DNA of 64,000 bases from Candidatus Woesearchaeota archaeon (GCA_016187565.1 JACPJR010000026.1:44232-108231), one strand, 5' to 3'; shown: positions 30,815-62,533, counted from the first letter of the stretch. Notes: generated by a model from the sequence alone, not told the origin. Made by a program: numbers and translations.

Positions 30815-30875
30815 GAAAGAGCTAATATGGTTTTCTTATTTAAACTTTTGCTAACTCTTTTTTTGGATAAAGCTT

Positions 30876-46434: not shown

Positions 46435-46540
46435 GAGCGCAACGCTCTTTTTTCTCTTTTTTTCTTTTCCTTCTTGTTGTTGTTTATCTTCATGTTCCTG
46501 ACATTCCTCTTATATGTAGGGATGAATAGTTTACGTTTAA

Positions 46541-47110
46541 TTGTCGTTGATCACCATGAAACTTCGCTCGCTGTATAGTCTGTTATCAATGGTTCTTGCA
46601 CTCTTTTTCTCTAGTTTCCTCATGCCTCAGGTAGATGGGGCTGATCTTCATGATTATCCAGATCTTTTCTTTGCTGATGGTCATTTCAATGGGCTTTTGG
46701 TGGTTGGTGATTATGCCAATGCAGCAGATGTGGTAGGTGTTACCTATGTTGCGTTGAGCTTACAGGCATACAGCAACACTGCCATTAATGTAGAGGCTGT
46801 TCGTTTGGCCTCTGAAATAACCAATGTCAGTGCCCAAAATCTGATTGTGGTTGGCGGACCTTGTATTAATACCGTTGCAGCAGAACTAATGGATTATCCA
46901 GTTCCCTGTACCAAGGGCTTCAGTCAGGGAATGGGATCTATTCAGCTTTATGAGCATCCTAATGGAAATATTGCTATTCTTGTTGCAGGATTAGAAGCCA
47001 TTGACACCAAGCGAGCAGCGCTTGTTCTGGCAAAGTACGATCAATACCAGATTTCTGGAACGAATGTTGAGGTCACGACAAGCACTGAACCACAGATTCT
47101 TATTCGGTAA
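46541..47110 (+). CDS. Minimal S-layer paralog (N- and C-terminal S-layer domains only)
   Basis: Signal peptide, then DLHDYPDLFFADGHFNGLLVVGDYANAADVVGVTYVALSLQA fused directly to AQNLIVVGGPCINTVAAEL...IAILVAGLEAIDTKRAAL; 189 aa. Confidence 0.6.
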   Translation: MSLITMKLRSLYSLLSMVLALFFSSFLMPQVDGADLHDYPDLFFADGHFNGLLVVGDYANAADVVGVTYVALSLQAYSNTAINVEAVRLASEITNVSAQNLIVVGGPCINTVAAELMDYPVPCTKGFSQGMGSIQLYEHPNGNIAILVAGLEAIDTKRAALVLAKYDQYQISGTNVEVTTSTEPQILIR

Positions 47111-47116
47111 CCTCTT

Positions 47117-47443
47117 TTACCGCAACCCATGCAGTCGCTGAACTAACTCATCAAAAATGTTCTTTTTCTTTTCACTCGATAGAGAAAATAATACTTTTTC
47201 AATCATAGCAGTCGAAACAGTAAAGATGTAGTTTAATTTAATGACACTATCCTTGAGAGCTCCATCCTTTTTTGTCAACAGTATGCCTTTCATTTCAAGA
47301 TTGCTGGTGATACCAGCGACCACTACATTATCAAATTCGCTGAACAGCACTACGGCAGGTCTTTTTTTAATCTCAAACGTATCAGTAAACTGGACATGAG
47401 CGAGAACAATATCGCCTGGCTTAGGCATTTTCCCATGCCTCAT
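47117..47443 (-). CDS. MazF/PemK-family toxin
   Basis: PKPGDIVLAHVQF...KKRPAVVL matches the PemK/MazF N-terminal consensus; 108 aa. Overlaps the upstream antitoxin by 23 nt. Confidence 0.65.
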   Translation of the reverse strand: MRHGKMPKPGDIVLAHVQFTDTFEIKKRPAVVLFSEFDNVVVAGITSNLEMKGILLTKKDGALKDSVIKLNYIFTVSTAMIEKVLFSLSSEKKKNIFDELVQRLHGLR

Positions 47444-47645
47444 CTTCTTTGTTGTCCCACAGTTCTTTCATCTTAACTTGCTGAGTTTTATGGAGAAACT
47501 CATCATATTGGTTTCTTTTCTTTATATTCTTACATGTATGAATCATCTGCTTAATCAATTCATTATAGGTCTGTCGAGGATATTCTTTCACTTCCTTTAA
47601 TGATGCTACAACGGATTTCTCAAGTTGTATAGTTGTTGCGCTCAT
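47421..47645 (-). CDS. Putative antitoxin (RHH/MazE-like) of the MazF-like toxin
   Basis: 74 aa with N-terminal beta strand TTIQLEKSVVASL followed by helices; immediately upstream of, and overlapping, the toxin. Confidence 0.5.
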   Translation of the reverse strand: MSATTIQLEKSVVASLKEVKEYPRQTYNELIKQMIHTCKNIKKRNQYDEFLHKTQQVKMKELWDNKEDEAWENA

Positions 47646-47795
47646 TATACATCACCAATAGTAGGTATATAATCAGTTATATATAAACTTTGCTTTTCTG
47701 ATGAGTGGTTGTTTTTAAATGTGTAAACAGAATAGCAAATGGAACACCAGAATTGCCTGTCCGAAACGTTTATATAGAGAAGTAACATCAACTTC

Positions 47796-47996
47796 TTGGT
47801 GAAAGATATGACAAGGACAATAACGATAAATGAAGATATTTTTCAGGAAATGATACGGAAGAAAGAAGAATTCGATGTTATTGTGGAATCAATAGAACTT
47901 ATGAATGCTCCTGAGGTGCGAGAATCAATAAGAAGGAGCAAAGAAGATATCAACGCTGGAAGAATACACAAGCTAAAGGATGTTCTCAAAAAATGA
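47796..47996 (+). CDS. Phd/RelB-like antitoxin
   Basis: 66 aa, acidic; overlaps the downstream RelE-like gene by 4 nt (ATGA). Confidence 0.5.
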   Translation: MVKDMTRTITINEDIFQEMIRKKEEFDVIVESIELMNAPEVRESIRRSKEDINAGRIHKLKDVLKK

Positions 47997-48247
47997 GTTA
48001 TGAAGTTATATTAACCGACTCTTTCTTAAAGGATGTGAAAAAATTAAAGAATAAACCACTTGAAGAGCAGGTTCTCTACAAATTACAGGAACTTGAGGAG
48101 AGTCCAGAAAGAAACAAGAAACTACAATACGAATTGAAGGATTATTATAGAATAAGAGTAGGAAAACTTCGAATTCTTTACACCATTCAAGGCAATAGAG
48201 TTTATGTTGAAGTTCTCGTCAGAGGACATAAGTACGAAGAGGTATAG
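47993..48247 (+). CDS. RelE/ParE-family toxin
   Basis: C-terminal LKDYYRIRVGKLRILYTIQGNRVYVEVLVRGHKYEEV matches the RelE/ParE consensus. Confidence 0.7.
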   Translation: MSYEVILTDSFLKDVKKLKNKPLEEQVLYKLQELEESPERNKKLQYELKDYYRIRVGKLRILYTIQGNRVYVEVLVRGHKYEEV

Positions 48248-48300
48248 GGCGGGCAATAAACCTCACATGTGTTTTTAACTGCGTCTTTCGATCGTATAGC

Positions 48301-48588
48301 TCATTTGAAGATGTCAGAAACAGACTCTATTTTAATAGTCTTTTCTTTTTTAATCTTCGCAAGTTTCTTGATAAACGCTTCCTTGAGCGGTAATTCGTCA
48401 ACAGGATGCCAGTCTATGCTCTCACAAAACGTCCAGTCGTCATCAGAAACTTCTCCGGTTTGAAGGTACTTTTCAAAAATCAGCTTCTTTCTGGTTTCTT
48501 CTTTAGCGATCTCGCTCCAATTAACCCATTCGAAATGCTTTAGCTTTTCCTTAAATTCACTGCTTATTGATAATGTTACCGATGCCAC
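48301..48588 (-). CDS. Orphan VapB-like (SpoVT/AbrB or RHH-type) small protein, GTG start
   Basis: VTLSISSEFKEKLKHFEWVNWSEIAKEETRKKL is homologous to the VapB-like antitoxin at 62306-62533 (ITLAIPEDLHTRMREHSEIRWSEVVRKTITQKI); 95 aa. Confidence 0.4.
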   Translation of the reverse strand: MASVTLSISSEFKEKLKHFEWVNWSEIAKEETRKKLIFEKYLQTGEVSDDDWTFCESIDWHPVDELPLKEAFIKKLAKIKKEKTIKIESVSDIFK

Positions 48589-48589
48589 G

Positions 48590-48745
48590 TTAGAGCGCTC
48601 CTTTATTCTTCAATTCTTCAAACTTTAGCAATTCATGTATTCTAAGCTGGAATCTCTTTTTTAGATATTCAGCTAAGTTAATTTCAGGGAATTTATCAAT
48701 TTCTTCTTTCAATTCCTTAGGTATTGATACCGTAAAGGTAGCCAT
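48590..48745 (-). CDS. Small VapB-like paralog (51 aa)
   Basis: Manual translation MATFTVSIPKELKEEIDKFPEINLAEYLKKRFQLRIHELLKFEELKNKGAL; tandem paralog of the downstream gene; not in the ORF track. Confidence 0.35.
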   Translation of the reverse strand: MATFTVSIPKELKEEIDKFPEINLAEYLKKRFQLRIHELLKFEELKNKGAL

Positions 48746-48864
48746 AGTACGAGCACCCAACTTAGTTAATACACGAGAATTCGTTTGTCTATTTAAACTT
48801 TGCTTCTTTTGAGACGTTTATCTCTCACAAAACGTCCAGTCTTCATGAGAAATTTATTTTGTGG

Positions 48865-49758
48865 TCACTTGGCATATCTATAATACATTTTCAAATATCT
48901 CTTTACTAAAGATTGTACAAAAATATAGTCTTTGTTCTTCGTCTGGCTTCTCTCGAGAGCGTTATAATAACTGTTTCGGTTTGTATACTCAATGTTTAAC
49001 ATCGGATAGCTGTGCTTATGCAATACAAAATTCATCATTAATCTTGAAATTCTTCCATTACCATCGCTAAATGGATGGATAGTTACAAATTTCAAATGAA
49101 CCAACGAAGCCAAGACTACGGGGTTTAGTTTACTTTTATTTTTATGGTACCAGCTACAAAAATCATGGAGCAAAATATCAAGCTCTGCTGGGAATGGTAG
49201 TTCTACTTTGCTTCGAGCAATAGCTACTTGATGCTTTCTTATTACCCCTGCAATATCAGGCTTGGTGTCTTGTAAAAGTAGCTTGTGCCAATAAAGTACC
49301 GTAGACAGACTTAAATCTTTCTTAGAGTCTAGCATTTCATAGAAAACTTTCCTATGAGCTTCTGCTTCTTTCACATCCTCTAGAGGCTTATTTCTGGGCG
49401 TTATGTGTTGCTGTAACAAATCAGCCGTTTCTTTCAACGACAGTGTACTACCCTCTATTCTGTTGGTGTTATACGTAAATCTAATCATAAATGATTCAAT
49501 GTGCTGTTCTCTCGCAGAAGGGGGATAGGTAGAGAAATCCTCGCTAAATTTCTTCTGAATACTCTCAAGATTTTCGTTAAATTTCTCTAAGAATAGCTCG
49601 TGCATGAATTTTTCTTTAATTAATGCTGTATTCTTAGGCTCTTCAGAACCAAGATACTTTCTTTTGTTCCTAAATCTCTTACCTTCTCTGATGGTGTGTT
49701 CGAGATAATAATAAGTCTTACCTTTAACTGTTCTTATCCTCAGGTTCACCATAAACAC
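48865..49758 (-). CDS. Fic/DOC-family protein (putative AMPylase)
   Basis: Fic motif HPFSDGNGRISR; 297 aa. Confidence 0.8.
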   Translation of the reverse strand: MFMVNLRIRTVKGKTYYYLEHTIREGKRFRNKRKYLGSEEPKNTALIKEKFMHELFLEKFNENLESIQKKFSEDFSTYPPSAREQHIESFMIRFTYNTNRIEGSTLSLKETADLLQQHITPRNKPLEDVKEAEAHRKVFYEMLDSKKDLSLSTVLYWHKLLLQDTKPDIAGVIRKHQVAIARSKVELPFPAELDILLHDFCSWYHKNKSKLNPVVLASLVHLKFVTIHPFSDGNGRISRLMMNFVLHKHSYPMLNIEYTNRNSYYNALERSQTKNKDYIFVQSLVKRYLKMYYRYAK

Positions 49759-49855
49759 AGGTATGCGTCACAAATATATAAATCTTGCTATTTTCATCAA
49801 AAAGTGACGTATAAGCATATTCCTGCTTCAAGATTTGTCCTGGAGAAGCATCATT

Positions 49856-52153
49856 TTAATCACAAGGTGGTCCTGGATGTGCACAATGTGTAGCAGGATC
49901 AGTAGCACTTACCGCAGCTGCTGTTGCAGTAGGATCAGGAGGTGGATCTACAGCAGTATGATCTAATGCAGCCCTCTCTTGAGCTTGTCGTTTCCAGTCA
50001 TCTCTTTCCTCTTGGGTTGGTGGATCTTTTGGTACCTCATTATAGTCCACAGGAAGTTTATCAAAGCTATAGATTTCTTCTCCACCCCATATAGCTGCAT
50101 AGGGACCTGTAGGGTAACTATCACTATCTGTGTAATAATATTTACCTTCTTTAACTCTTACCTCGTAATACTTTCCATCTGGCTGCTTGATGTACAGAGA
50201 ATTAAACTCCAAATCGCCAAACAGATCATCAAGACCAACAGCATCGGGAAGTCCAGAGTTGATGGTAATTATGTCATTCTCTGTCCTTGTCCATTCTTTT
50301 CTTGCTTCTCCTGGAGAGTTGCGGGTTTCAGCGCCAGTCTCTCCATCTGGAGCTGGTTCAGCACTTTCTTCTGCTTCGTCCTTTGTTGCATCAGCACTTA
50401 CTGCTGCTGCCTCAGGAGCACCACTCGTACCTGCAGCAGTGTCAATCGCATACCATCCATCTGGTTTCAGGGTACCTAAATCAATTGGAAATGTAACTAA
50501 CTTATTTTTATCGTTGTCCCATGCGGTTACGTCGTTGAACAGAGTTGTGGAAGTGGGATCAACACTCACTCTCATTTGATTTAGGTCATTGATGCTGGCT
50601 ATTTGACCGCCTCCTTTATTCTTACCAAGAGCGTCAAGAGGTTCTGTGGAGAAGGAGACCTGTGTTGTTGATGTTGGTTGTTTTTTTTCAGGATCTTGCG
50701 TTGTCCCTACCCATAAAGGTTGCTTATCAGGTATTCTGTTGTCATACTCGTAGAATAGCTCCTGGTTGTCAACATTGACTCTAGCTAGATCCTCTACATG
50801 ATTCTCTTCAAAGTCAAACTCTTCTGTTGTTGCCAATTGTACCTTTTGTCCTTCAATGCTGGTGTAGAGGTCTTTATACATTCCCTCTACTGCGATATCG
50901 CTCTCACCCTTCTTTTGCGTTACCTTTCCTTGTCCCAGAAGCACAGTTTCAGTGCCGGTGAAAATTGCGACTGGAGTATTTTCATCCGTTCTGAGAGTCT
51001 CTATTGCAGTTACATCTCCGTTCAAAGCCTTCTCTCCGTCAGAACCTTCTTCAACGCCAAAGAGAACCCGGAGCCCATGGTCGGGGGCATTCTCAAACCG
51101 CGTAGCCGTACCTGAAAGAGCATCGGTAGCATATGCATCACCATCTTTAATGGTTGTTTCAGTCAACGCTTGAAGTCCTTGTCGGTCACTAAATCGAATT
51201 CCAAAGTAGTTTCCTTTTCCTTTCACATCGTATTTTTTTCCATTAACCTCTGTCAGAAAGGTGAATTCAACATCCAGTGTAGAGACAATAAGATTCGCGT
51301 CAGGATTAAACGTGACCGTGGCATCATTCTTCCCGGGCTGTGCCATAATATAATCACTTTCCCGGTTAGTAAACAATTTACCTTGGATTTTCCAGTTGCT
51401 CCCTTGAGCTAATGAAAAATGTCCTTCCACGAATTCAAATCTGACTGCAGGGTGGTCAGATTCTCCTTCTACTCTACGATACGTCACCCCATCTCGGGTA
51501 ACTGTTCCAACTCCATTAATAATAAACTGATCACCTTCTAAGGTCATTGATGCTCCAGGTTCACCTCTAAATACACTATCCGTGCCTGCTACAGGAACCG
51601 TGACTTTTCCTCCTTTATCAGCGAATGTTACCTTAATTGAGTCCCCCTGCTCAGGATATCCCTCGTTAACGACAGTAATCATTGCTGCACTGTCAAACTC
51701 ACAGGTCTTTCCTTGATAGATACTCTGACAATATTTCTCGGCAATGGTTTTATCTTTCTCAGCAGTCATACCATCTGGGAATAAGGTTGATGAGGTTAGG
51801 TAGTTGTGTGCATTATTGAGGGTGTTGTCTGTGTAGGTCTCACCACTATCACTGCTTTCCAAATATCGTTGAAAGAGATCCTTATTGCTCTCACTGACCT
51901 CGGGTTTATTTTCAAAATAGGTCTTTGCATAGTCTCCTTTATAGTTGGCTGTTAACCATTTCGGACAACTCTCTGGGTTAGTTTCACACCAGGTACTAAA
52001 ATCTTCAACATTTTCACCAGTAAATTGTTGGTTTCCATCGTCAGAGTCACCCCCCCCGACATCTGTTTCTGCAGAGATGAGGGGTGAGAACACCACTAAC
52101 ACTACAAGTAACGTTATCCATAATGGTATCATCATTTGTTTCATCGTTATCAA
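49856..52153 (-). CDS. Large secreted protein (operon member H), Cys-containing C-terminus
   Basis: Signal peptide MITMKQMMIPLWITLLVVLVVFSPLISA. 765 aa. Pro/Ala/Thr-rich C-terminal tail ending CAHPGPPCD. G8 homopolymer near the 5' end. Confidence 0.6.
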   Translation of the reverse strand: MITMKQMMIPLWITLLVVLVVFSPLISAETDVGGGDSDDGNQQFTGENVEDFSTWCETNPESCPKWLTANYKGDYAKTYFENKPEVSESNKDLFQRYLESSDSGETYTDNTLNNAHNYLTSSTLFPDGMTAEKDKTIAEKYCQSIYQGKTCEFDSAAMITVVNEGYPEQGDSIKVTFADKGGKVTVPVAGTDSVFRGEPGASMTLEGDQFIINGVGTVTRDGVTYRRVEGESDHPAVRFEFVEGHFSLAQGSNWKIQGKLFTNRESDYIMAQPGKNDATVTFNPDANLIVSTLDVEFTFLTEVNGKKYDVKGKGNYFGIRFSDRQGLQALTETTIKDGDAYATDALSGTATRFENAPDHGLRVLFGVEEGSDGEKALNGDVTAIETLRTDENTPVAIFTGTETVLLGQGKVTQKKGESDIAVEGMYKDLYTSIEGQKVQLATTEEFDFEENHVEDLARVNVDNQELFYEYDNRIPDKQPLWVGTTQDPEKKQPTSTTQVSFSTEPLDALGKNKGGGQIASINDLNQMRVSVDPTSTTLFNDVTAWDNDKNKLVTFPIDLGTLKPDGWYAIDTAAGTSGAPEAAAVSADATKDEAEESAEPAPDGETGAETRNSPGEARKEWTRTENDIITINSGLPDAVGLDDLFGDLEFNSLYIKQPDGKYYEVRVKEGKYYYTDSDSYPTGPYAAIWGGEEIYSFDKLPVDYNEVPKDPPTQEERDDWKRQAQERAALDHTAVDPPPDPTATAAAVSATDPATHCAHPGPPCD

Positions 52154-53181
52154 CCGGTTACATTAATCATAAGCATGATAAAGTCTGAGGCATTCAAGGG
52201 ATCGGTAACCGTCACAATAGGTGTGTAAAGACCGGACTCAGTAGGGGTAAAGCTCACCATTCCCTCAGCATTAATCGTTGCTTGGTCATCGAGAATTGCA
52301 TAGGTTAAGGGATCATGGTCAGGATCAACCGCAGTGATGTTCAGAAGAATTAAGCCAAGCGGTGCTTCATGGTATGGTTCTATGGTAATGATAGGCGCTC
52401 TGTTTCCTAGGCCAGGCTGCATCTGGACGGCAAAACTAAATTGTAACGGATAACCATTCAGTTGCGTGGTGTCCTCTCGTATGGTGACTACCTTCTCATA
52501 GGTGTCAAGATGATACACCGCTACATCTACGGGTTGTGCGGCAATACCGCTTAAGTCTATCATAGTGGGATCTGCAGCAAAGAGATCAACAACAGCATGC
52601 CCGACCGTAAGGACCTTGCCAAGAGGAACTGGAACAAGAACATTAAATGCATCTATCTGCTGCTCATTTCCTGGCGTAGCAATGGTGAGGGGGAATTGTG
52701 TCTGTACAAGGACATCTTCTTCACGGATTTGTACCGTGCTCTGCAAGGTTCCATAATTTGTAATGTTGTATCCCGGCAGGTTGTCTTCTAAGGCAAGAAT
52801 ACAGGAAAGGGCGAATTGATCAACATAGTCGGCAATCTGCTGGGCGATGAGCGTCGTAGAGGGTGAAATATCATTTCCCTGGTAAAACCAGTAAGAGGTG
52901 TTGGCGTAGAAGGTTGCAAGGGTTGGGATAGAAGGAGGAATCCAGATATAGCCTCCTTGAAATCCTGAGAAAAAAAGAGCATTCTTCGCTTCATTGCTCA
53001 GACAAGATTCCACATAGACCTGGGCAGTTGGCGCAACAACCAGTGATTCTTGCGCCTGTTCTTGTTGCTTTTTGGTTTCAGTGGTTGTTTTTCCTTTCGT
53101 GAGCGTAAATAAGGTACCAACCACAATAACGAGAACAATACCCACTATCAAGAACAAGGTTATTTGACCCTTTGTACTCAT
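52150..53181 (-). CDS. Type IV pilin-like protein with class III signal peptide and cadherin/Big-like C-terminal domain
   Basis: MSTKGQITLFLIVGIVLVIVVGTLF matches the archaeal prepilin motif (K-G-Q then hydrophobic helix). C-terminal DPDHDPLTYAILDDQATINAEG resembles cadherin-like repeats. Confidence 0.6.
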   Translation of the reverse strand: MSTKGQITLFLIVGIVLVIVVGTLFTLTKGKTTTETKKQQEQAQESLVVAPTAQVYVESCLSNEAKNALFFSGFQGGYIWIPPSIPTLATFYANTSYWFYQGNDISPSTTLIAQQIADYVDQFALSCILALEDNLPGYNITNYGTLQSTVQIREEDVLVQTQFPLTIATPGNEQQIDAFNVLVPVPLGKVLTVGHAVVDLFAADPTMIDLSGIAAQPVDVAVYHLDTYEKVVTIREDTTQLNGYPLQFSFAVQMQPGLGNRAPIITIEPYHEAPLGLILLNITAVDPDHDPLTYAILDDQATINAEGMVSFTPTESGLYTPIVTVTDPLNASDFIMLMINVTG

Positions 53182-54032
53182 GCGTTAGCCTCTTTTGTGG
53201 TTATTTTTTGAGATATAGAGCCAGAGCTTCCTTTTATACCTTTTGGTTTTATGGACTTTGTTTTGATTGTTATTCTGCTCGATGCCACTGTGGTGATGAC
53301 TTGGATGAAAAACAGCCGTGCCCAATCCAGATAGGCAAGGAACAGAAGAGCAATACAACCATACCATACGCCTGCTGGCAGTCCTTGCAAGGCAAAGATG
53401 AGAATGAAGAGCAGTACACCACCAACGCTTATAATTATAAGAGGGATAATAAATCGATGGATCTTGAAGAGCACGTGCATACTCTGAGCGAGTGATTTTT
53501 TGATCTGTTGTGGATCAAGAAGTGTGGAGAGAATGACCGTACCATAAACGTAAAGCGGGAGAAGGATGTACACCATGGTCCAGAAGAAGGCTTGTTCCTG
53601 TTGGATGGTGAGTAAGAGCAACAGAAACATTGCCCATAAAAGAAACCAGCCGGTCTTCATAAGAAAGAGCACACTGAAAAAACGTGCAGTATAGCGTTGT
53701 TGCATACAGTAGCGATAGATCCATCCCTTGATAATGGAGGAGAGCAAGAGAGTAGCAAGGATTGTCAAGAGCGTGATAAAGACAAATCGATAGGCTATCC
53801 CTTGCACAAAGGTAAGTAAGAGAGCAGGATCGTCAAACTGTCCAGGTTCTGTATTGAGAATGCCTGCACTATACGTGAGATAGCCATACCAAAGCAAGGC
53901 AATGAGGATGACATACACCAGATCAAGAGCAAGACCAACAAGTAACTGCTTTCCATCAAAACTCTTCTTGAGTTCTTTGAGGGCAAGAAGATCTCCAAGG
54001 CGAGAGGTGTTAAGGAATGGTGCGCTCATCAT
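53178..54032 (-). CDS. Polytopic membrane protein (operon member)
   Basis: ~8 TM helices. Start placed at an internal Met to avoid a 77-nt overlap. Confidence 0.5.
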   Translation of the reverse strand: MMSAPFLNTSRLGDLLALKELKKSFDGKQLLVGLALDLVYVILIALLWYGYLTYSAGILNTEPGQFDDPALLLTFVQGIAYRFVFITLLTILATLLLSSIIKGWIYRYCMQQRYTARFFSVLFLMKTGWFLLWAMFLLLLLTIQQEQAFFWTMVYILLPLYVYGTVILSTLLDPQQIKKSLAQSMHVLFKIHRFIIPLIIISVGGVLLFILIFALQGLPAGVWYGCIALLFLAYLDWARLFFIQVITTVASSRITIKTKSIKPKGIKGSSGSISQKITTKEANA

Positions 54033-54951
54033 CACTACCTCCACCGTCACCCGGCCCAATATCTGGCGCTTCCCCTTGTGGAGCACTATAACTTAACATT
54101 CCTTCAACAAACTCATCCTGGTTAAGCAGAGGAACACAGACAGGATCTTCAATATCTTCCGCAGTATAACTTGCAGCCAAGTCTGGATTGTAATCTTCAA
54201 TATACCGGACACAGAGATCAGTCCAGTATGGCTGGTCTTGAGCAACATTTTTGTCACTATAACTACTCGAGGTTTCATTCAGATAAAACTGGAAGAATCC
54301 ACTTGCAGCTCCCTGCTGATTTCTGAGAAGGGTTCCACTCTTATTGATGACTGCATAGGTATTGGGGATGTTTCTGTTTTTCAAGTAAAGAGTAAAGTAG
54401 ATGCTATCTCCGAGAGACCAGTCGAGTTTGTAGGAAAAGGTATCATCTCCTGTTTGGTAGTACCATTCTCCTGCAAGATAAACTGCATAGCGTCCAAATC
54501 CCTGGGAATCAACACGAAGCATTGCATCTTCAGGCACTCCTAAACCAAAATCAGACTTCTGGCACATCCACAATTCCCAGACAAAAGGATCTGCAAAATC
54601 ATAAGGAAGTCGCCGTTCTTTTTCATAGTCAGTCCATCCGAGTTTTTCAGCAAGGTAGATTGAACTTGGATCTGGGGTTCGGAAAAATTGTTGTCCAGAA
54701 GGAACGCCAACCCCACCAAAGATGAAATTACACCATCCAGACCAACCTCTGTCTGAACCCTCAGTTGGAGCTGAACACGCTTTATCAGAGTGTACTACTG
54801 GACTTACGGTTGTTCCTATCCCTGCGTCTCCTCTTGTCTCCCCTTCATCCGGCCTATCACCTGTCCCTTCCACCCCTTGTGGTAGCACCAAGAGTATGCT
54901 TGTTGCTACTACTATCATCACCACTATGTTGAGGTATGCTCTGGAGTTCAT
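54010..54951 (-). CDS. Secreted protein with C-terminal PDIGPG-Gly-rich motif
   Basis: Signal peptide IVVMIVVATSILLVLPQGVEG; Trp/Tyr-rich beta domain; ends ...APDIGPGDGGGSDDERTIP. Confidence 0.55.
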   Translation of the reverse strand: MNSRAYLNIVVMIVVATSILLVLPQGVEGTGDRPDEGETRGDAGIGTTVSPVVHSDKACSAPTEGSDRGWSGWCNFIFGGVGVPSGQQFFRTPDPSSIYLAEKLGWTDYEKERRLPYDFADPFVWELWMCQKSDFGLGVPEDAMLRVDSQGFGRYAVYLAGEWYYQTGDDTFSYKLDWSLGDSIYFTLYLKNRNIPNTYAVINKSGTLLRNQQGAASGFFQFYLNETSSSYSDKNVAQDQPYWTDLCVRYIEDYNPDLAASYTAEDIEDPVCVPLLNQDEFVEGMLSYSAPQGEAPDIGPGDGGGSDDERTIP

Positions 54952-54957
54952 GTTGTC

Positions 54958-57900
54958 TCACCCTGAAGGCCCAATGTCTGGCCCTCCACCTTCTTCTCCT
55001 CCTTCTTGATCTTCTTCACGCTTTTCAAGGGCATCAAGGACTTCCTTGACATCTTCTTGGCCACAGATATCATCTTCTCCTTTGAACATGTTCTTGAAAC
55101 TATCTGCTTTAAAGATTGATGCAATATTGTTGGTGTAGCTTTCATGATCGGCAAAGGTCATATAGGAATCAAAAAGAGCACAGCCCATGTTGGTGATGGT
55201 CATGGGATTCTCTAAGGTAGATGCCTTACAGACCGGCGTACTTAGTTGCGTATTATAGTCAGCACAGACAAATCCTCGAGCCTGTTGGATTGCAAACGCC
55301 GTAGGATGGTTAAGAATGGTTTGCACCCACTCAGCCATTCGTTCAAGGACAAGAAAGGCACCAAAGCTGCGGGCAATACTTCCCCAGGTATAGACACATT
55401 GCGCAATCGCTAATCCTTCTTCACAACTGGCAAATCGCTGTAATCCGCTCTTGCTCTGCTCAGCCATACAATCAACATAGGCACATTCAAGTTGCTGTAG
55501 TCTATTGAGATGGTAGATAATGCCAGGCACACAAAAACAGCCAATACTTACAATAATACTGTCCTCTGGCCGTGGATATGCAGAAAAGGCATTTCGTAGA
55601 TCTTCGGTAGTAGGAATGGGTCGTACATTCTTTTCTGTCCCTGTTTTTTCCTGAGCGGAGTCTGTTATTTGTTTATCAAATGGTAAGAATGTTTCAGGGT
55701 CAAAGAGATAATCACTTCCAGGAAATCTGTTCCATGTATACCCCTCACTGTCAACTTCCCCACCCCAGAGATTCGTTTGTGGATTAGGATCACATTGCGC
55801 ACAACTCACCGCAGCACAGGCCTGTTTGAGAAACTTACCTCCACCTGTTGGTTCACCAGATGACTCTTTTCCAAATAATTTTCCAATGCTCGTCAGTTTC
55901 GTACTCTGAATATTACACATAATCTCATTATACTTGTCCCAAAGGTTTTGTGCAGCCGGAGGATCAAAGGCATAAATAACCCCGCTGATGGCATAGACAA
56001 CTGCTCTGGTCTGGGCCATGAGTTTGTACAGTGCAGACAGTACACCTTCCAACTCGCAGATATTATTGAGAATGGTAAAGAGTTTATTGAGCCCATTGAC
56101 CCATTCTTGCCCTGCACGAACCCAATGCCTATGTTCATTAATCTTGTCCAAAAACGCATCATCAACACTATCTAAAGGAACATTATAGATCTGGACCGCA
56201 AAACTCACGTTCTCAAGCTCTGGATTTCTCAGAGCCTGTTCTTGATAGATATAGTCGAGGTAGAAGATACAATCAAAGGGAACCTCTGGGCCGATCTCAG
56301 AGAAATCCGTTGTTTTGAAATCAATCCGCAATACTGCAGTCCATTCGTCTAAGGAAGGATCATATACCGGATCAGCATAGAGATAGGGCTCGTCAGAAAA
56401 TTCAGAGGCGTAATTACATTGTTCTCTGACGACTGCCTTGAGATCATCTCCGTTAATGCTTGCTCCTGCTTTCTCCCTAAGATGCACGACGGCAAATGCC
56501 TTCAGCGGAAAGCGTTGCGCAGTTAATGCATCTAATTTGTAGTTGTCCGGAATAAAGGAAACCGTGTTGGTAAAATGGTCAGGAAATTCCTCAGTAGAAA
56601 CACCATAGATCCTGAGCGTTGTTTCTTGGGTTGCCGTGTTGCCCACCATATCACTGATAGAAAATTTCACACTCACCTCTCCGCTTGTTGCTCGTACATC
56701 AGTAATCGTCCAGGTACAGGTTTGCGTATTGTTAATGGTCTTAGGACTGCATTGATCTGCAGGGATCTTAATCGCTCCTGGTTTAATCCGTGAAAAATCT
56801 CCAGAGGTAGTACTGCCATCTTCAGCTACCTGACTGTGGATTTCTTCAATCTCGGCAGTAAAGAGTAGGGTATCACCATCCTTAAAATAGTCCTTTCCTT
56901 CATCGGTTGCTACGGTAATGCTGAGAATTTCTGGTGGCGTTTCATCATACACGAAGCTTCCTCGAATTTCGCCTTCAATAGGATTACCAGCATCATCCTG
57001 CGAAGGGGTGGTGAGAAAGATATCAACCGTTCTTCCACTCACTAAGGAAACTCCCTTTCGCAGATTATACCAACGGCAGCTCCAGAGTTCGCCTGCTGCC
57101 GTGCAATCATTACTTCCAACCCGTTGCCAGGCGCTTCCCATAAAGCCACTTAAATCTACGGTTACATAATGCACCTCTTGATTATTGATGCTCATGGTCT
57201 TGGTAAATCCTGCGCCAGGAGATTGCAGGACTATGGTAAGATTATTGCTATCAGGTCCTAAGAAACATGCCTCGTTAATGCACATGCCGCTTTGAATTCC
57301 CAAACCTTCAGGTCCGCTATCATCAATGGTAAAGGTGACGGTCTGTTCTGCAGCGACGTTATTCCCTCCAACATCAGTCAGATTAAAACGCAAGACAGCA
57401 CTCTCGCTGTTCATCTTCAAATGGATGCGCTCAAAGGTACAGGTGTAGGTTTCTTCACTGGTCTCACAATCAACCTGGATTCCTGCGCCACTATTGGGAA
57501 AGGGAATTGCTTTATAGCTCTCGGCAAAGCTTCGGTCATCATTAAGATAAGAGAGATCAGCAATACTTTCGACAAGATTTTCTTCCCTAAAGACGACTTC
57601 AACATCAACGACTTGTTCTCGGTTCCCTTCTAAGGAGATGTATCGTACTTCTTCGCCAGACTGATCATCCAGTATGCTAACGCTTTCCAATGCAGGGTCC
57701 TCAAGATCAATAGTATAGCGTATATGATCGCTCTCGGTTGCTTGACTAAAGAGATCATAAACTCTAACGTACAGATCAGTTTCTCCTGAGGTAACACCGT
57801 CAAGAACAAGCCCGGTTGCATAGCTGCAATTTTGGGTATTGGGACGATCAAGACCAACAACATCACCATTCGCATAGATCTCAAGATACGAAATGCCTGT

Positions 57901-58482
57901 ACATTTTCCTTCACATTCAGGATCTTGGCATGCAGTATCAGCAACAGAGATATTTGCTGTTACTTTTTTGTTTCCCTGGGTGATATTAAAGAGGGTTATG
58001 GTTGGAGGAAGCTCTTCAGGATAGACCATAACAGGACCAAAGACATCAAGCGGATCACTGACACCGGGAGTAAAATAATAAAAGGTAAATCCATAGGGAT
58101 CCTCAGGAATAAAACTGGAGTCCGTACACGTACATTCTTGGCCAACAACAGTTGGGCTGGAATAAGCTGCACAGGAAGTACCTCCATTACAAAAGTTGCG
58201 ACCAAAAACAACATTGTTTACCTTAATCTGGTCTGGCTCAACAGTATCATTGGTTTCAACAATGACCTTGTAGGTTAAGATATCATCTTGGCGATGATAT
58301 TGAGCAGTGCCATCAATACCGGTTACTGTTGCATTAAAAATAGTGTTTGGTTGAGCAAAAATCGGCGTAATCAAGGATAAACTGATGACTAAGCTTGCCA
58401 TCAACAAAGCTATACTTTTTTTGAGATCTACGGTTCTTGTGAAATCCATGATCCTTAGGGGCATAAATAAGTTTCTCCTCAA
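54958..58482 (-). CDS. Giant secreted Cys-rich protein with C-terminal GGGPDIGPSG motif
   Basis: 1174 aa. N-terminal signal/TM KSIALLMASLVISLSLITPIFA. Ig-like beta-rich N-terminal two-thirds. Cys-rich ~400-aa C-terminal domain ending EEGGGPDIGPSG. Confidence 0.65.
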   Translation of the reverse strand: MRRNLFMPLRIMDFTRTVDLKKSIALLMASLVISLSLITPIFAQPNTIFNATVTGIDGTAQYHRQDDILTYKVIVETNDTVEPDQIKVNNVVFGRNFCNGGTSCAAYSSPTVVGQECTCTDSSFIPEDPYGFTFYYFTPGVSDPLDVFGPVMVYPEELPPTITLFNITQGNKKVTANISVADTACQDPECEGKCTGISYLEIYANGDVVGLDRPNTQNCSYATGLVLDGVTSGETDLYVRVYDLFSQATESDHIRYTIDLEDPALESVSILDDQSGEEVRYISLEGNREQVVDVEVVFREENLVESIADLSYLNDDRSFAESYKAIPFPNSGAGIQVDCETSEETYTCTFERIHLKMNSESAVLRFNLTDVGGNNVAAEQTVTFTIDDSGPEGLGIQSGMCINEACFLGPDSNNLTIVLQSPGAGFTKTMSINNQEVHYVTVDLSGFMGSAWQRVGSNDCTAAGELWSCRWYNLRKGVSLVSGRTVDIFLTTPSQDDAGNPIEGEIRGSFVYDETPPEILSITVATDEGKDYFKDGDTLLFTAEIEEIHSQVAEDGSTTSGDFSRIKPGAIKIPADQCSPKTINNTQTCTWTITDVRATSGEVSVKFSISDMVGNTATQETTLRIYGVSTEEFPDHFTNTVSFIPDNYKLDALTAQRFPLKAFAVVHLREKAGASINGDDLKAVVREQCNYASEFSDEPYLYADPVYDPSLDEWTAVLRIDFKTTDFSEIGPEVPFDCIFYLDYIYQEQALRNPELENVSFAVQIYNVPLDSVDDAFLDKINEHRHWVRAGQEWVNGLNKLFTILNNICELEGVLSALYKLMAQTRAVVYAISGVIYAFDPPAAQNLWDKYNEIMCNIQSTKLTSIGKLFGKESSGEPTGGGKFLKQACAAVSCAQCDPNPQTNLWGGEVDSEGYTWNRFPGSDYLFDPETFLPFDKQITDSAQEKTGTEKNVRPIPTTEDLRNAFSAYPRPEDSIIVSIGCFCVPGIIYHLNRLQQLECAYVDCMAEQSKSGLQRFASCEEGLAIAQCVYTWGSIARSFGAFLVLERMAEWVQTILNHPTAFAIQQARGFVCADYNTQLSTPVCKASTLENPMTITNMGCALFDSYMTFADHESYTNNIASIFKADSFKNMFKGEDDICGQEDVKEVLDALEKREEDQEGGEEGGGPDIGPSG

Positions 58483-58501
58483 AAATCTTTGGTATCTTTG
58501 G

Positions 58502-59380
58502 TTATGATGGTTTCATCATGTAGGGGTAGGCTTGTGAAAAATCCTCAACAGCCATCATGATATTCATCTCCTCAATGCGGATGGGTAAGGGTAACTTAAA
58601 GACATAAAAGGTTATCTCTTCCTGAGCCAGCATCTCCTTGGTAATGGTAATGTTCCCGACAGCACCTCCAATAAGTGCAGGGTTTAAGGTTATGGAAGGA
58701 ACCGTTACCTTTTCCTCGTCTCCAAGACAACCAAATATATTGGCGAGGATCTGCAGAGCAAAAATAACGCTTACAATGGCTATGCCAATAGGACCTGCTG
58801 CAGCCAAAGGCGCTGCAATACTTGAAAGTACCGGGATAGAGGCAGCGGCAAGATAGCTTGCTCCGACACTAATGCCTGCTGCAATAGCTGCATCTTTTGC
58901 CGTATCACCGGTCTGTTTCCATCCCCCACCAGTCAGACCTTTACAGTAGGAAATCTGATATTCAGGAATGGTCACATTTTCATACAACAACAACTGTGCT
59001 TCCATGCGATAAGTCCCAGGAATGAGCGGAACAACAACCGTCTTATTTTTTTCATCGCCTTTTTTAATCACATACTGTTGAAAAGGAGCATCGCCAGGGT
59101 CAGTGCTTATGCGTTCCAGTATCAATAACACTTGCTCTGCTCTTTCGACAGGGCTTGTTTCTGTTGCCAATAATTGCCGTCGTTGTTCTAAGGTAGGGGC
59201 TTGCTGCAGCGCGTAGATATTATCAAAGTCTCTTTCCTTTAAAACAACATTCTGGTAATCAAGCGGCTCAAGGTCTACGGTAATTGGCTTCGTACTCAGA
59301 AGGGATGCCGTGGTCACGGGCAAAAAAAACAGAAGGAGACAGCAACAGAGAACACTTATACGCATCAGTAACGGTTTCAT
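58502..59380 (-). CDS. Secreted protein with C-terminal Ala/Gly-rich hydrophobic anchor
   Basis: Signal peptide MKPLLMRISVLCCCLLLFFLPVTTA. C-terminal AAIAAGISVGASYLAAASIPVLSSIAAPLAAAGPIGIAIVSVIFAL. Confidence 0.55.
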   Translation of the reverse strand: MKPLLMRISVLCCCLLLFFLPVTTASLLSTKPITVDLEPLDYQNVVLKERDFDNIYALQQAPTLEQRRQLLATETSPVERAEQVLLILERISTDPGDAPFQQYVIKKGDEKNKTVVVPLIPGTYRMEAQLLLYENVTIPEYQISYCKGLTGGGWKQTGDTAKDAAIAAGISVGASYLAAASIPVLSSIAAPLAAAGPIGIAIVSVIFALQILANIFGCLGDEEKVTVPSITLNPALIGGAVGNITITKEMLAQEEITFYVFKLPLPIRIEEMNIMMAVEDFSQAYPYMMKPS

Positions 59381-61011
59381 TGTTCAACCACCACCGAAAG
59401 CTCCTCACCTATCTTCGTATCAACGACCACTGAATAGTCAAGATAATCCTGCTTGCTCATGGTGAGGACACCATTTAAGCAGACAGGTAATTGTTTGGTT
59501 ATTCGTGCTTTTTCTTCATCGTCAAGAGAGGTCACTCCAACAAAGAGGCTGCGTGCGCCACAGGCATACATGACCTGAACACCGGGCAATGCCTGTTTTG
59601 TTTGCTTATCCCGTGTTTCAATGGTCACATTGCCACTCAATCGTTGATTCCGCTGGTCAAAGAGGGATTGTTCTCCTAACAAAGGCTCTCCTAGTTGATA
59701 GTCTGTAGTAAGTGCCCAGTTATCACGAATGTTTGTTTCTATGGCAAACTGGAAATGATATCCCTGTCCAGCAAATGCATCATCATCACGTAAGGTTACT
59801 AATACCGGGAAGCTCACATCATATGAAAACTCATACCGCTGGATAAATACTTGGAGAAGACCTTGTAAACTCTGCTGTGAGATCGTGCTTGCCGTGATAA
59901 GCTCACCTTCACGTGGCGTAATGTCAAAATAAACAGGCCACCCTAAATAAAAGAAATCAACGCTATAGGGATAGGGCTTTTCAAGAATCGTGATGACGAA
60001 CATATCGAGAACACCCTGTTGTTCATTCGTCAAGACCGCGTTATTTTCAACACGGTATCTTCGATAACCAGTCGTGTTCGGAATCTGGATGGCCTGGATA
60101 TAGTTGGGCAAAATGAGCTCTTCGATGACCTCTTGAACTTCAGTCTTTATCCAAGGTGCTCGTATGCCGCCAGGGCCAAAGGTTGTGGCAGCAAAGGGTG
60201 GCAGAGGTTTTTCCACACCAGAATACAATGCAATAAGGTTTAAGGTAACGTCCTCAATATATGCCCAGGCAATCTCCTCATTCACGATTTTTGTGGAAAG
60301 CTCGTACATTGCAAAGAGAGGAACATCGATAATACTAATGAATGCATCAAGATCATAGATTTTTTCTCCACGCTGTACGGTTAAGGGGTAGGAGATCTCG
60401 ACAACCACATCCTTCTGCGTCACTATGGTTAAGGGTTGGATATCTCCTGTTTCGGTAATCACCATGCCTTGTTGGGCAAATGGTTTAAAGTCATCAAGGC
60501 AAGCAGGTAGCTCTCGTTGTATCCACCGATCCAATTGTGCTTCCATGGACTTATCGTTTGACGTTCTCATTCCTTCTTGTTGCGTGCTTTTAAGCAAAGG
60601 TCTTCCGCGATCAGAAAACTGACAATCCTTGGTACAGTCATTCCTGCTTTTCAGGTACCACCAGTATGGTACACGTAAGGGACCAAAATCAATAAGCTCT
60701 GACTCTGTTGGTACAGAAGAATAGTGAAAGCTGCTGCCGCTTAAGGTTTCATCAGTAAGACTAATCCACCCTCCCTGCATACCCATAATCTTCAAGCCCT
60801 TCACCGTAACATCAGTAACACAGTTCTCCACATAATCCTGTATTGGTTGCACTTCGGGAGGAACCTTTACTTCTTCTCGTACGGGTGGTTTATATTCGCT
60901 GACTCTGGACTTAATAAAAAAGATAAGGAATGAGGAAAAAATCAAGAGGAGTCCAATAAGCAAAAAAACCGTTACCTGTGCTTTTCTTCCTCTTTTTTTA
61001 TTTGATGGCAT
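59377..61011 (-). CDS. Large pilin-like protein with class III-type signal peptide
   Basis: From the internal Met: MPSNKKRGRKAQ|VTVFLLIGLLLIFSSFLIFFI (charged, then A-Q, then hydrophobic helix). The ORF-track start at 61074 would overlap the upstream gene by 77 nt. ~544 aa extracellular domain. Confidence 0.5.
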   Translation of the reverse strand: MPSNKKRGRKAQVTVFLLIGLLLIFSSFLIFFIKSRVSEYKPPVREEVKVPPEVQPIQDYVENCVTDVTVKGLKIMGMQGGWISLTDETLSGSSFHYSSVPTESELIDFGPLRVPYWWYLKSRNDCTKDCQFSDRGRPLLKSTQQEGMRTSNDKSMEAQLDRWIQRELPACLDDFKPFAQQGMVITETGDIQPLTIVTQKDVVVEISYPLTVQRGEKIYDLDAFISIIDVPLFAMYELSTKIVNEEIAWAYIEDVTLNLIALYSGVEKPLPPFAATTFGPGGIRAPWIKTEVQEVIEELILPNYIQAIQIPNTTGYRRYRVENNAVLTNEQQGVLDMFVITILEKPYPYSVDFFYLGWPVYFDITPREGELITASTISQQSLQGLLQVFIQRYEFSYDVSFPVLVTLRDDDAFAGQGYHFQFAIETNIRDNWALTTDYQLGEPLLGEQSLFDQRNQRLSGNVTIETRDKQTKQALPGVQVMYACGARSLFVGVTSLDDEEKARITKQLPVCLNGVLTMSKQDYLDYSVVVDTKIGEELSVVVEQ

Positions 61012-61765
61012 TGTAGCAGGTAAATTTGTAAAACTCTGATTGAATTTCATTACAGGCTGTTTGTACGTTTTCATTATGACGGTGGATTAAGGCAACGGTT
61101 ACCAGGCATAGATCGTTCTGTTTTTCTCGTGTTAAGCATACTACCTTTGCTTCGGTAAAGTCAAAGCCTTCAAGTTCCTGAACGATTTGATCGATGTTTT
61201 TGGTGAGCGAGAGATAAAGGCCAATGGCTGAGCTCAGAAGGATTAACAACATGATACATCCTATGACAATGATACTGTGGGCAAAGAAAACATCCTTGCG
61301 TTCAGGAGAAAAATATGTTTTCTTAAGGAAATAGCTTCTCCTGTTGTGGACATACCAGAGCGTAAGTCCATTGAGAATGACGGTAACAAGCAATGCTCCA
61401 AGAATCAGTTGTTCCATAAAGCCAAAGATACTGAACTTTAAGAATGCTACTGAGATGAGTGAATTCAGGACGCTGAGGGAATAGAGAACAAAAGCCAAAT
61501 AATAGGACCATGATTTTTGTTCAGCAATACCATACACCAGCACGGCAATAATGACGGTCGTAAGAATATTGACGTCTCGTGCTGCATTGCCAATCAGCAT
61601 TTTGCCTGCAAGCATGGTGCTGGGCACGTAGATCGCTAAGAAGAGATAAAATACTCCAAGAATAAGAGAATAAATGATCAGCACTCGGACTGCATACGGC
61701 CTCTCTTTTTTAAAAGGCTGAGCTACTTTTTCAATCTGCCCCTTCCTCTCTTTTTTCATTCGCAA
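60998..61765 (-). CDS. Polytopic membrane protein (first gene of surface operon)
   Basis: 255 aa, ~7 TM helices, basic N-terminus. Confidence 0.55.
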   Translation of the reverse strand: MRMKKERKGQIEKVAQPFKKERPYAVRVLIIYSLILGVFYLFLAIYVPSTMLAGKMLIGNAARDVNILTTVIIAVLVYGIAEQKSWSYYLAFVLYSLSVLNSLISVAFLKFSIFGFMEQLILGALLVTVILNGLTLWYVHNRRSYFLKKTYFSPERKDVFFAHSIIVIGCIMLLILLSSAIGLYLSLTKNIDQIVQELEGFDFTEAKVVCLTREKQNDLCLVTVALIHRHNENVQTACNEIQSEFYKFTCYNAIK

Positions 61766-61871: not shown

Positions 61872-62309
61872 CTATTTGGTTTTTTCTTTTTCTTCAGGAA
61901 AAAACAGTTTTACAATATGCTTTGTCTTAAAAACTCTAACTTTATTCTGTTTTTCAAGATGAGGGTCATCTGACCACATCTTAGAATTTTCAATGCCAAA
62001 AGCAGTTGCCAAGAAAACAACATCATCAGGATCAATTTTTCCAAGAAGTTTATCAACTTCTTCTATTTTAAGCTTAATCTGCTCTTCTGGGACTAAAGTA
62101 ATATGCTTTAGTAAATGATTTAACAATTCTGTATATTCTTCTTCATTCATTCCAGATTTTTCTAGAACTAAATCTTTATACTTCCTTATCTCGTGGAAAG
62201 AAGATTCTGGATAGAAAAAGTCCCAGCCAGACTCAACAATAATCTTTCTTACAGTAGAATCCCTAATAAGACTAGCAAGAAGGATATTAGAGTCAATGAC
62301 AAGAATCAT
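61872..62309 (-). CDS. vapC: PIN-domain toxin VapC
   Basis: MILVIDSNILLA N-terminal PIN motif and DDVVFLATAF C-terminal motif; 145 aa; overlaps vapB by 4 nt. Confidence 0.65.
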   Translation of the reverse strand: MILVIDSNILLASLIRDSTVRKIIVESGWDFFYPESSFHEIRKYKDLVLEKSGMNEEEYTELLNHLLKHITLVPEEQIKLKIEEVDKLLGKIDPDDVVFLATAFGIENSKMWSDDPHLEKQNKVRVFKTKHIVKLFFPEEKEKTK

Positions 62310-62533
62310 CTTCTTAGACCGAGTTTTCTTGCAACTGCACTATCTACTTTATTAGCAATTTCATCTACATCTTTTTGTGTTAATTTACTCTTAGCAGTTA
62401 GTTTGTCCATAACATCTAAATCTTCTATCTTCTGGGTTATAGTTTTTCTAACTACTTCACTCCACCTAATCTCAGAGTGTTCTCTCATTCTTGTGTGTAA
62501 ATCTTCCGGTATTGCTAATGTTATATTTGGCAT
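62306..62533 (-). CDS. vapB: VapB-like antitoxin
   Basis: 75 aa, ITLAIPEDLHTRMREH beta-strand/helix N-terminus; upstream of, and overlapping, vapC. Confidence 0.55.
   Translation of the reverse strand: MPNITLAIPEDLHTRMREHSEIRWSEVVRKTITQKIEDLDVMDKLTAKSKLTQKDVDEIANKVDSAVARKLGLRR

Follow-up and report, generated by a model that had tools for sequence, protein, structure and literature searches.

Organization of the operon

The window analyzed here, a 64,000-nucleotide (nt) stretch of DNA from a Candidatus Woesearchaeota archaeon, contains between positions 49856 and 61765 a group of eight minus-strand genes that we have named G1 to G8 in the order of their transcription (Table 1). An earlier prediction on this DNA (hereafter, the original prediction) had described the group as an operon of secreted and membrane proteins that might form a novel pilin-associated surface apparatus, and all eight co-directional open reading frames (ORFs) are indeed present. 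Three pairs of genes (G2/G3, G6/G7, and G7/G8) overlap by 4 nt, and gaps of 19 and 6 nt separate G3 from G4 and G4 from G5. The spacing that had been claimed, i.e., 4-nt overlaps or gaps of at most 20 nt, describes most of these junctions, but two overlaps are longer, 14 nt at G1/G2 and 23 nt at G5/G6.

The G1 gene may start at the ATG codon at 61759 instead of the TTG codon at 61765. A TATA-like box, TTTATAAA, is located 25 nt upstream of this ATG, and thus it is likely the promoter of the operon, whose transcript may be leaderless. A run of five T beyond G8 is a possible, weak candidate for an archaeal terminator, and the Fic gene located downstream of G8 has its own TATA-like box.

Table 1. 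Genes and putative signals of the G1-G8 operon (window coordinates; aa, amino acids)
Feature	Coordinates	Strand	Description
TATA-like box TTTATAAA	61784-61791	-	Read from the sequence; likely promoter
G1	60998-61765	-	Polytopic membrane protein, 253-255 aa
G2	59377-61011	-	544 aa, class III-type signal peptide, modular
G3	58502-59380	-	292 aa, detached C-terminal module of the G2 family
G4	54958-58482	-	1174 aa, secreted, type I signal peptide
G5	54010-54951	-	313 aa, secreted or N-terminally anchored, lineage-specific
G6	53178-54032	-	Polytopic membrane protein, ~284 aa
G7	52150-53181	-	343 aa, second pilin-like protein
G8	49856-52153	-	765 aa, secreted orphan, type I signal peptide
Five-T run	49799-49803	-	~55 nt past the G8 stop codon; read from the sequence

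Hydropathy profiles revealed several membrane-spanning segments in G1 and G6, in agreement with the two polytopic membrane proteins originally described, a single N-terminal hydrophobic helix in G2 and G7, and signal-like N-terminal segments in G3, G4, G5, and G8. The signal-like N-termini of G4, G5, and G8 are consistent with the three large secreted proteins that had been proposed, with the reservation that G5 may be anchored by its N-terminus. Searches of G1-G8 against Pfam, NCBIfam, PHROGs, and PADLOC gave no match besides a Big_9 immunoglobulin (Ig)-like domain at the C-terminus of G7, confirming that the operon contains no recognizable enzymatic motif. Neither tRNA nor Rfam features were found in the window, and the G+C content of the operon resembles that of the remaining sequence. 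The G2 product is annotated in NCBI as the hypothetical protein HYW21_07240 (544 aa), encoded on a 129.5-kb contig, and an identical locus (L001) is present in several Logan assemblies.

Conservation of the gene order

The original prediction had staked its validity on the conservation of the operon in related genomes, and this conservation was found both in a close relative and in distant ones. In the relative represented by locus L057, with ~80% amino-acid identity, the genes G1 to G7 appear in the same order, with ratios of nonsynonymous to synonymous substitutions (dN/dS) of 0.07-0.30 and a dS of ~1; this contig stops 77 nt past G7, and thus the comparison covers the first seven genes. The dN/dS values indicate that even the orphan G5 (74% identity, dN/dS 0.17) is under purifying selection.

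The wider comparison comprised ~49 loci, including metagenomes, i.e., six contexts from contigs encoding G2 homologs plus 44 GTDB-species loci recovered by a four-sequence alignment search. Every locus title that names a lineage refers to Woesearchaeota, Pacearchaeota, Nanoarchaeia, or Nanoarchaeota. Iterated hidden Markov model searches over these loci revealed a recurrent order, G1-like, G2-long (700-780 aa), G4-like (1000-1150 aa), a variable protein that we call V, G6-like, and a second G2/G7-like paralog (590-690 aa). G1-like genes occur in 7 loci, G4-like genes in 37, V genes in 22, and G6-like genes in 19. Directly upstream of G4 there is a G2-family gene in 35 of 40 cases, and 34 of the 46 G2-family genes are directly followed by G4. 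In some metagenome-assembled genomes, the two halves of the cluster are found at separate loci (L015 with L049, L047 with L048). The cluster is usually close to tRNA synthetase genes, which places it in the chromosomal core and not in a mobile island.

A chance juxtaposition of the eight genes is excluded by an order that is kept in the ~80% relative as well as in dozens of distant genomes. The eight genes thus form a real operon.

The G2 protein family

The eight genes do not encode eight distinct components, as had been assumed. On a G2-family profile of 707 positions, G2 covers positions 3-527, G3 covers positions 521-704 (E = 1e-23), and G7 covers positions 6-234 (E = 1e-28), according to hmmsearch and in agreement with phmmer. 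Thus, G2 and G3 together are a split copy of a protein that is otherwise made in one piece, and G7 is a truncated paralog of G2 that shares ~200 N-terminal residues of the G2-family fold. The same split is common to the short-form homologs P0005 and P0006 and to the loci L010 and L057. G7 is also shorter than the second paralog of other genomes, and it carries the above-mentioned Big_9 domain at residues 261-333 (window 52183-52401, Pfam E = 2.7e-6).

As a detached module, G3 has gained a signal peptide of its own. The Ala/Gly-rich hydrophobic stretch of G3, originally taken for a C-terminal anchor, is in fact internal: it is a Gly/Ala-rich insert of ~60-75 residues (residues ~160-221 of 292; window 58718-58903). 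In the alignment this insert is confined to the split lineages (L010, L057, and the window), the unsplit proteins having none, and it is reasonable to infer that it provides a membrane anchor in place of the lost covalent tether.

The G2 family is very large, with 9,613 cluster representatives at E ≤1e-3 and 2,061 at E ≤1e-30 in an exhaustive profile search. A word-indexed database yielded 49 G2 homologs, and every one with a named source is a hypothetical protein of Woesearchaeota. The pilin-like proteins of the clusters range from 540 to 990 aa. The family has no Pfam model, and a profile search against PDB sequences detected no relative.

The split, the paralogy, the giant protein that follows the second paralog in other genomes (see below), and the occurrence of the two halves at separate loci suggest that the operon is best read as two analogous units, G1, G2/G3, and G4 on one side and G6, G7, and G8 on the other, each consisting of a membrane protein, a pilin-like protein, and a large secreted protein. 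Between both units there is a hypervariable slot, occupied by G5 here and by V elsewhere.

Class III-type signal peptides

The rule used to detect class III signal peptides follows the published style and requires [KRDE][GA][ALIFQMVED][ILMVTAS] ahead of a hydrophobic stretch free of charged residues; it was run on every start codon in the six frames of the 64 kb. Only G2 and G7 match it, precisely the two proteins to which such signals had been ascribed. The N-terminus of G2 reads MPSNKKRGRKA/QVTVFLLIG... and that of G7 reads MSTKG/QITLFLIVG..., where the slash marks the putative cleavage site. In the G2 family, 144 of 191 members fit the rule, with a median n-region of 7 residues; among these 144 proteins, position +1 is Gln in 143, position +3 is Thr in 126, and position +5 is Phe or Tyr in 140. 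The aligned family motif is [KR][KR][GA]/Q[IV]T[IVL]F[IM]I[IL], and Q12 is invariant in the 37-sequence alignment of the family, whose mean column identity is just 24%. Such a conservation around the putative cleavage site is hard to explain if the helix were a plain anchor. The Gln at +1 is presumably comparable to that of the Methanococcus pilins processed by EppA, and the Q-x-[ST] pattern at +1 to +3 may resemble that of euryarchaeal pilins. The Pilin_N and Class_IIIsignal models of Pfam do not match any of G1-G8, and among the NCBIfam pilin models there was only a far sub-threshold hit of G7 to UpsA (E = 0.03).

Predicted structure of G2

The AlphaFold2 model of G2, built from the 37-sequence alignment, is confident, with a mean predicted local distance difference test (pLDDT) value of 85.8 and a predicted TM-score (pTM) of 0.70. 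It consists of an N-terminal helix (residues 8-37), a linker (38-51), an alpha/beta core of ~400 residues, and a C-terminal beta-sandwich (~460-544). A structure search with the core found no match in the PDB, and the model thus predicts a new alpha/beta fold. The search did not recover a pilin fold either. The C-terminal beta-sandwich is CnaB/transthyretin-like, a similarity of ~80 residues with a query-normalized TM-score of at most 0.13, and the match of G2 to SlaB concerns one beta-sandwich only. The comparison with viral structures (Foldseek) gave domain-level noise, with a query-normalized TM-score of at most 0.15. Since the linker between the helix and the globular part is predicted with low confidence, a real filament is unproven.

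The membrane proteins G1 and G6

G1 has a conserved extracytoplasmic, Cys-rich C-terminal domain (C210, C220, C238, and C250). Wherever a G1-like gene is present it lies directly upstream of a G2-family gene, and all six of the G1 homologs whose adjacency was scored (6/6) are followed by a pilin-like gene. The G6-family gene is in turn followed by the pilin-like paralog in 14 of 18 cases. From this arrangement, G1 and G6 appear to be membrane partners encoded directly upstream of the first and the second pilin-like gene, respectively. Neither protein has a Pfam or NCBIfam match at E ≤1, and their family profiles match no sequence in the PDB, a database that includes platform proteins. When their profiles were compared with each other, G1 and G6 proved unrelated.

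Divergently upstream of the G2-long gene there is often a conserved, single-pass protein of ~405 aa with repeated Cys motifs (C-x2-I...D-x-C-Y), e.g., at L017 8239-9456, L008 8287-9504, L011 4326-5621, and many other loci. It is not found in the window, has no Pfam match, and seems to be missing where a G1-like gene exists; the C-terminus of G1 bears a similar Cys motif. The idea that this protein could be a peptidase was rejected, as it is a single-pass Cys-repeat protein.

The secreted proteins and the variable slot

G4 contains Ig-like repeats with conserved Cys pairs and a Cys-rich C-terminal domain of ~430 residues that is predicted to be helical (window 54961-56265). Its homologs carry Big_3_3 and Big_13 Ig domains, and 22 positions are invariant among them, most being Cys and many falling within the C-terminal ~430 residues. 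Judging from the adjacency given above, G4 is the conserved partner of the G2 family. A word-indexed homolog search with G4 returned the same species and one 81% relative only, and a search with a six-sequence alignment was discarded, having returned bacterial Ig-repeat proteins only. The profiles of the G4 and G6 families found nothing meaningful among PDB sequences, and the model of the G4 C-terminal domain, made from a two-sequence alignment, was unusable (pLDDT 32) and was kept out of the fold search.

Past the closest relative, no homologs of G5 were detected, and it gave no match in the profile comparison with the V family of the cluster loci; homologs of G8 were not detected in these loci either. 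G8 contains low-complexity Ala/Glu/Pro linkers. In other genomes its position, after the second paralog, is occupied by a giant fn3/Ig-repeat protein of 2079-3099 aa with a G4-like signal peptide, and the correspondence of G8 to these giants is a positional analogy. We also considered that G5 and G8 could be divergent members of the V, second-paralog, or fn3/Ig-giant families, but every profile test was negative.

The V protein (600-1950 aa) fills the slot between G4 and G6 in other genomes. It begins with an anchor and a domain that are both conserved, continues with a hypervariable middle part, and ends in a conserved region of ~250 residues. Three of the 20 V proteins contain a Pfam SLT lytic transglycosylase domain (E down to 7e-26), located at residues 165-270 in the V protein of L020 and at residues 195-322 in that of L032; SLT-bearing members measure 1018 and 1952 aa. 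The class III rule matches 8 of the 20 V proteins, including the SLT-bearing one of L032 (NKIAKG/LVSL). According to Pfam, none of G1-G8 contains an SLT/GH23 domain.

The C-termini of G4 (54958-55020) and G5 (54010-54080) both present the motif PDIGP followed by a Gly/acidic tail, and V proteins (L008, L021, L023, L028, and others) have a C-terminal tail that is acidic or rich in Ser/Thr and closes with [IL]-x-D-[FIW]. These tails may represent a shared C-terminal recognition or sorting signal.

Search for pilus machinery and comparison with known systems

The absence of an ATPase and of a prepilin peptidase in cis, as originally claimed, holds for the ORFs of the window that were covered. No pilus ATPase, platform protein, or A24 peptidase was detected by a Pfam scan of 20 large ORFs, with ~17 others of at least 150 aa left out, nor among the window ORFs by a Walker-A scan and by phmmer with the L007 peptidase as query. 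The Walker-A scan was extended to ~760 kb around the 49 cluster loci and the window, and it returned UvrA and UvrB only, with no T2SSE. A small major pilin was not found among the class III matches of the window, which are the large G2 and G7, and the small ORFs located after G4 in other genomes do not fit the rule.

In L007 and L059, which represent two lineages, an A24 prepilin peptidase gene does adjoin, divergently, clusters that contain a G2-family gene. The peptidase of L007 scores above the Pfam cut-off with Arc_PepC (E = 2e-6) and below it with Peptidase_A24 (E = 1.3e-3), and the L059 peptidase was recognized by its 40% identity to that of L007. Both genes are part of a conserved block (L007 1-2685, L059 9953-13210) that also contains HxsD and a radical-SAM/SPASM gene, thereby linking a peptide-maturation-type cassette to a prepilin peptidase. 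Some A24-centered metagenomic loci (L064-L066 and L072-L073) have several ORFs of 300-590 aa upstream of the peptidase and, downstream, small ORFs (119-160 aa) whose N-termini are of the class III type, and these loci look like ordinary pilus operons.

The cluster shares with the archaeal type IV filaments (Epd, Aap, and Ups pili, archaellum) the class III-type signal peptide, in which a short n-region of basic character precedes [GA] at -1 and a hydrophobic helix follows the putative cut directly. Unlike them, it contains no ATPase, platform protein, or small major pilin in cis in the ~49 loci, and its pilin-like proteins are large, with a core predicted to have a new fold, each paired with polytopic G1 or G6. 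The Sulfolobus bindosome exposes class III proteins on the cell surface without forming a long pilus. Large class III or PilY-like adhesins are encoded in some archaeal type IV pilus loci (PMC4858521), and large C-terminal modules are also found on modular pilins, e.g., S. sanguinis PilB (PMC8179133). The operon likewise resembles the bacterial minor-pilin/PilY1 tip complex, as large modules bear pilin-type N-termini and a neighboring gene encodes a secreted protein of over 1000 aa that is not a pilin, an arrangement that would work like an adhesion module located at the tip. It differs in belonging to an archaeon, in the lack of linked pilus machinery, in a Phe at +5 in place of Glu, and in resembling neither PilY1 nor DUF2341 nor known modular pilins in sequence or fold.

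These parallels, together with the class III motif itself, would fit an accessory or tip module of a true type IV pilus, with G2/G3 and G7 as minor or modular pilins, G4 as a PilY1-like adhesin, and the remaining machinery encoded elsewhere in the genome. We consider this quite improbable, since the ATPase, the platform protein, and the major pilin are never linked in ~49 loci, DPANN genomes reportedly lack type IV pilus components (He et al.), Pfam detected in G4 neither DUF2341 nor a PilY1 signature, the structure search recovered no pilin fold, and the Pfam, NCBIfam, and PDB profile searches revealed no counterpart of G1 and G6 among known pilus systems. The term pilin-associated rests on the N-terminal motif only, with no major pilin, ATPase, or platform protein linked in the ~49 loci.

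The claim that the operon matches no characterized pilus, archaellum, or surface (S)-layer system was upheld by the family and structure searches. None of G1-G8 matches the S-layer families PF05124 and SlaA/SlaB in Pfam. We examined linkage of the clusters to S-layer genes and to Fic genes, each of which was seen in one or two loci only, indicating that neither belongs to the system. The CnaB-like domain of G2 recalls the sortase-assembled pili of Gram-positive bacteria and the MSCRAMM proteins, but the similarity is limited to ~80 residues and the N-terminal architecture differs; no LPXTG motif or sortase gene was seen here, although no search was aimed at either.

Large SLT proteins specific to Woesearchaeota and Pacearchaeota (fam00969) have been suggested to attach to bacterial walls or to break them down (PMC8204110, PMC9723730), and they form one of the 51 mostly unknown lineage-specific families of Module 98 (Castelle et al., 2021, PMC8204110). 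The same lineages carry the cluster, and the V family located between G4 and G6 includes SLT members, whereas the window operon has neither an SLT domain nor a V homolog. That study reported its families in bulk and counted lineage-specific hypothetical families, and the G2, G4, and G6 families are exactly of this kind. The passages of PMC8204110 and PMC9723730 retrieved by keyword do not describe this gene cluster.

Neighboring loci in the window

The operon is flanked by toxin-antitoxin (TA) genes, located at 47117-49758 and 61872-62533, that encode PemK, ParE, Fic, and a vapBC pair of the PIN/RHH type; as the original prediction had noted, TA genes thus adjoin the operon, and they were identified by Pfam matches on the identical locus L001. 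Between G4 and V, other Woesearchaeota carry inserted genes of the PIN (E = 1.9e-6) and nucleotidyltransferase types (L020 9502-11568, L022 8854-9872). Judging from the flanking genes and these insertions, TA modules seem to have landed in or beside the cluster repeatedly.

These TA genes, the insertions inside the cluster, and the presence of Fic nearby in two loci might suggest that the operon is cargo of a mobile element, provirus, or defense island. We find this hardly credible: there was no significant match to provirus, mobile, or defense families in PHROGs or PADLOC, the viral-structure comparison gave only the noise described above, the chromosomal neighborhood is conserved with a vertical-looking distribution across an archaeal order, the G+C content is that of the window, and the genes are under purifying selection. 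Neither bounding integrase genes or att sites nor a patchy presence among close strains was seen.

Two adjacent plus-strand ORFs (43966-47110; 822 and 189 aa) match PF05124 and probably represent an S-layer gene whose C-terminal domain may have been split off or duplicated; both ORFs are separate from the operon and are not syntenic with the cluster elsewhere. On the minus strand, the region 28582-34427 contains a VWA-domain protein (28582-29814), a MoxR-type AAA ATPase (29762-30814), and a 1183-aa orphan (30876-34427) with a signal-like N-terminal segment, a hydrophobic C-terminal anchor, and no Pfam match, and it may be a second uncharacterized surface system. The window also contains an AbiEii-type toxin gene (36318-37139) with an overlapping upstream ORF (region 36318-37803), and a 661-aa DUF11-repeat surface protein (24546-26531).

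A proposed lineage-specific surface complex

We tentatively favor, without full conviction, the reading that the operon encodes a lineage-specific DPANN surface complex that depends on class III signal peptides and is composed of two analogous units, with variable distal proteins shown to other cells. Both pilin-like precursors would be inserted into the membrane and cut by an A24 prepilin peptidase encoded elsewhere, after [GA] and before the invariant Gln. The hydrophobic N-terminal helices of ~22 residues would then keep G2 and G7 in the membrane or in a short pilus-like stalk, beside G1 and G6, and the ectodomains of G2 and G7 would display G4 and the fast-evolving distal proteins G5 and G8 to other cells. 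In other genomes the distal protein would be a giant, sometimes with a murein lytic transglycosylase. The cleavage by the peptidase, the physical association of the proteins, and their role in cell contact or host attack are inferred, whereas the gene content, the paralogy and the gene split, the synteny, the purifying selection, the conserved motif at the putative cleavage site, and the lack of similarity to known systems are shown. A conserved core combined with interchangeable, fast-evolving distal proteins and occasional wall-degrading modules is the pattern expected of a host-contact or host-attack device, and contact with other cells is a plausible role for this operon. The host attachment that the original prediction had suggested is indirectly strengthened by the SLT domains in the equivalent slot of other genomes, although none is present in the window operon. 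By analogy, the operon would work like a pilin-anchored adhesin module, yet it lacks most of the features by which type IV filaments were tested.

Several observations weigh against this surface complex. The window operon contains no SLT or other enzymatic or adhesin-specific domain, and G5 and G8 are orphans. No type IV filament ATPase, platform protein, or small major pilin lies within 10 kb of the cluster in the ~49 loci, nor in the window, and the A24 linkage was observed in just 2 of ~50 cluster loci and in 1 of 19 metagenomic peptidase-centered loci. According to a published survey, DPANN genomes are devoid of type IV pilus components (He et al., bioRxiv 10.1101/2020.05.14.094862). The Pro-rich linker that parts the G2 helix from the globular part in the model would also fit a plain membrane anchor, and the near-universal presence implied by the 9,613 cluster representatives could equally mean housekeeping.

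Several of these points would suit a housekeeping envelope scaffold, in which uncleaved G2 and G7 would act as anchors, e.g., for anchoring or spacing the S-layer or organizing a pseudo-periplasm, with no pilin processing and no role in contact. The abundance of the family, its fixed place by tRNA synthetase genes, the lack of linked ATPase, platform protein, and major pilin, the flexible linker predicted after the G2 helix, and the S-layer-like PF05124 genes close by in the window are all compatible with it. We regard the scaffold as somewhat unlikely, considering that Gln is nearly invariant between [KR][KR][GA] and T..F in a family so divergent, that the S-layer genes do not accompany the cluster elsewhere, that the hypervariable and lytic-enzyme members suit an interaction role better, and that an A24 peptidase is adjacent in two lineages.

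A bolder form of the surface complex that we favor is a self-contained, undescribed organelle, in which G1 and G6 would install the pilin-type proteins without a pilus ATPase and the interchangeable distal giants, murein lytic transglycosylases among them, would bind a bacterial host and break through its wall. This form appears unlikely; if true, it would be the long-sought host-contact apparatus of a very abundant uncultivated group.

Among uncultivated archaea, Woesearchaeota and their relatives belong to the most abundant groups. A life attached to hosts is presumed for them, but no machinery for such attachment is known. This work defines a conserved multi-gene module that joins pilin-type signal peptides to conserved giant surface proteins and, in some genomes, also to the giant murein lytic transglycosylases already noted in these lineages. 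If the proteins were plain envelope scaffolds, a large block of hypothetical genes would still have been annotated. The module also offers a marker by which the host-interaction repertoires of DPANN genomes may be compared from one lineage to another.

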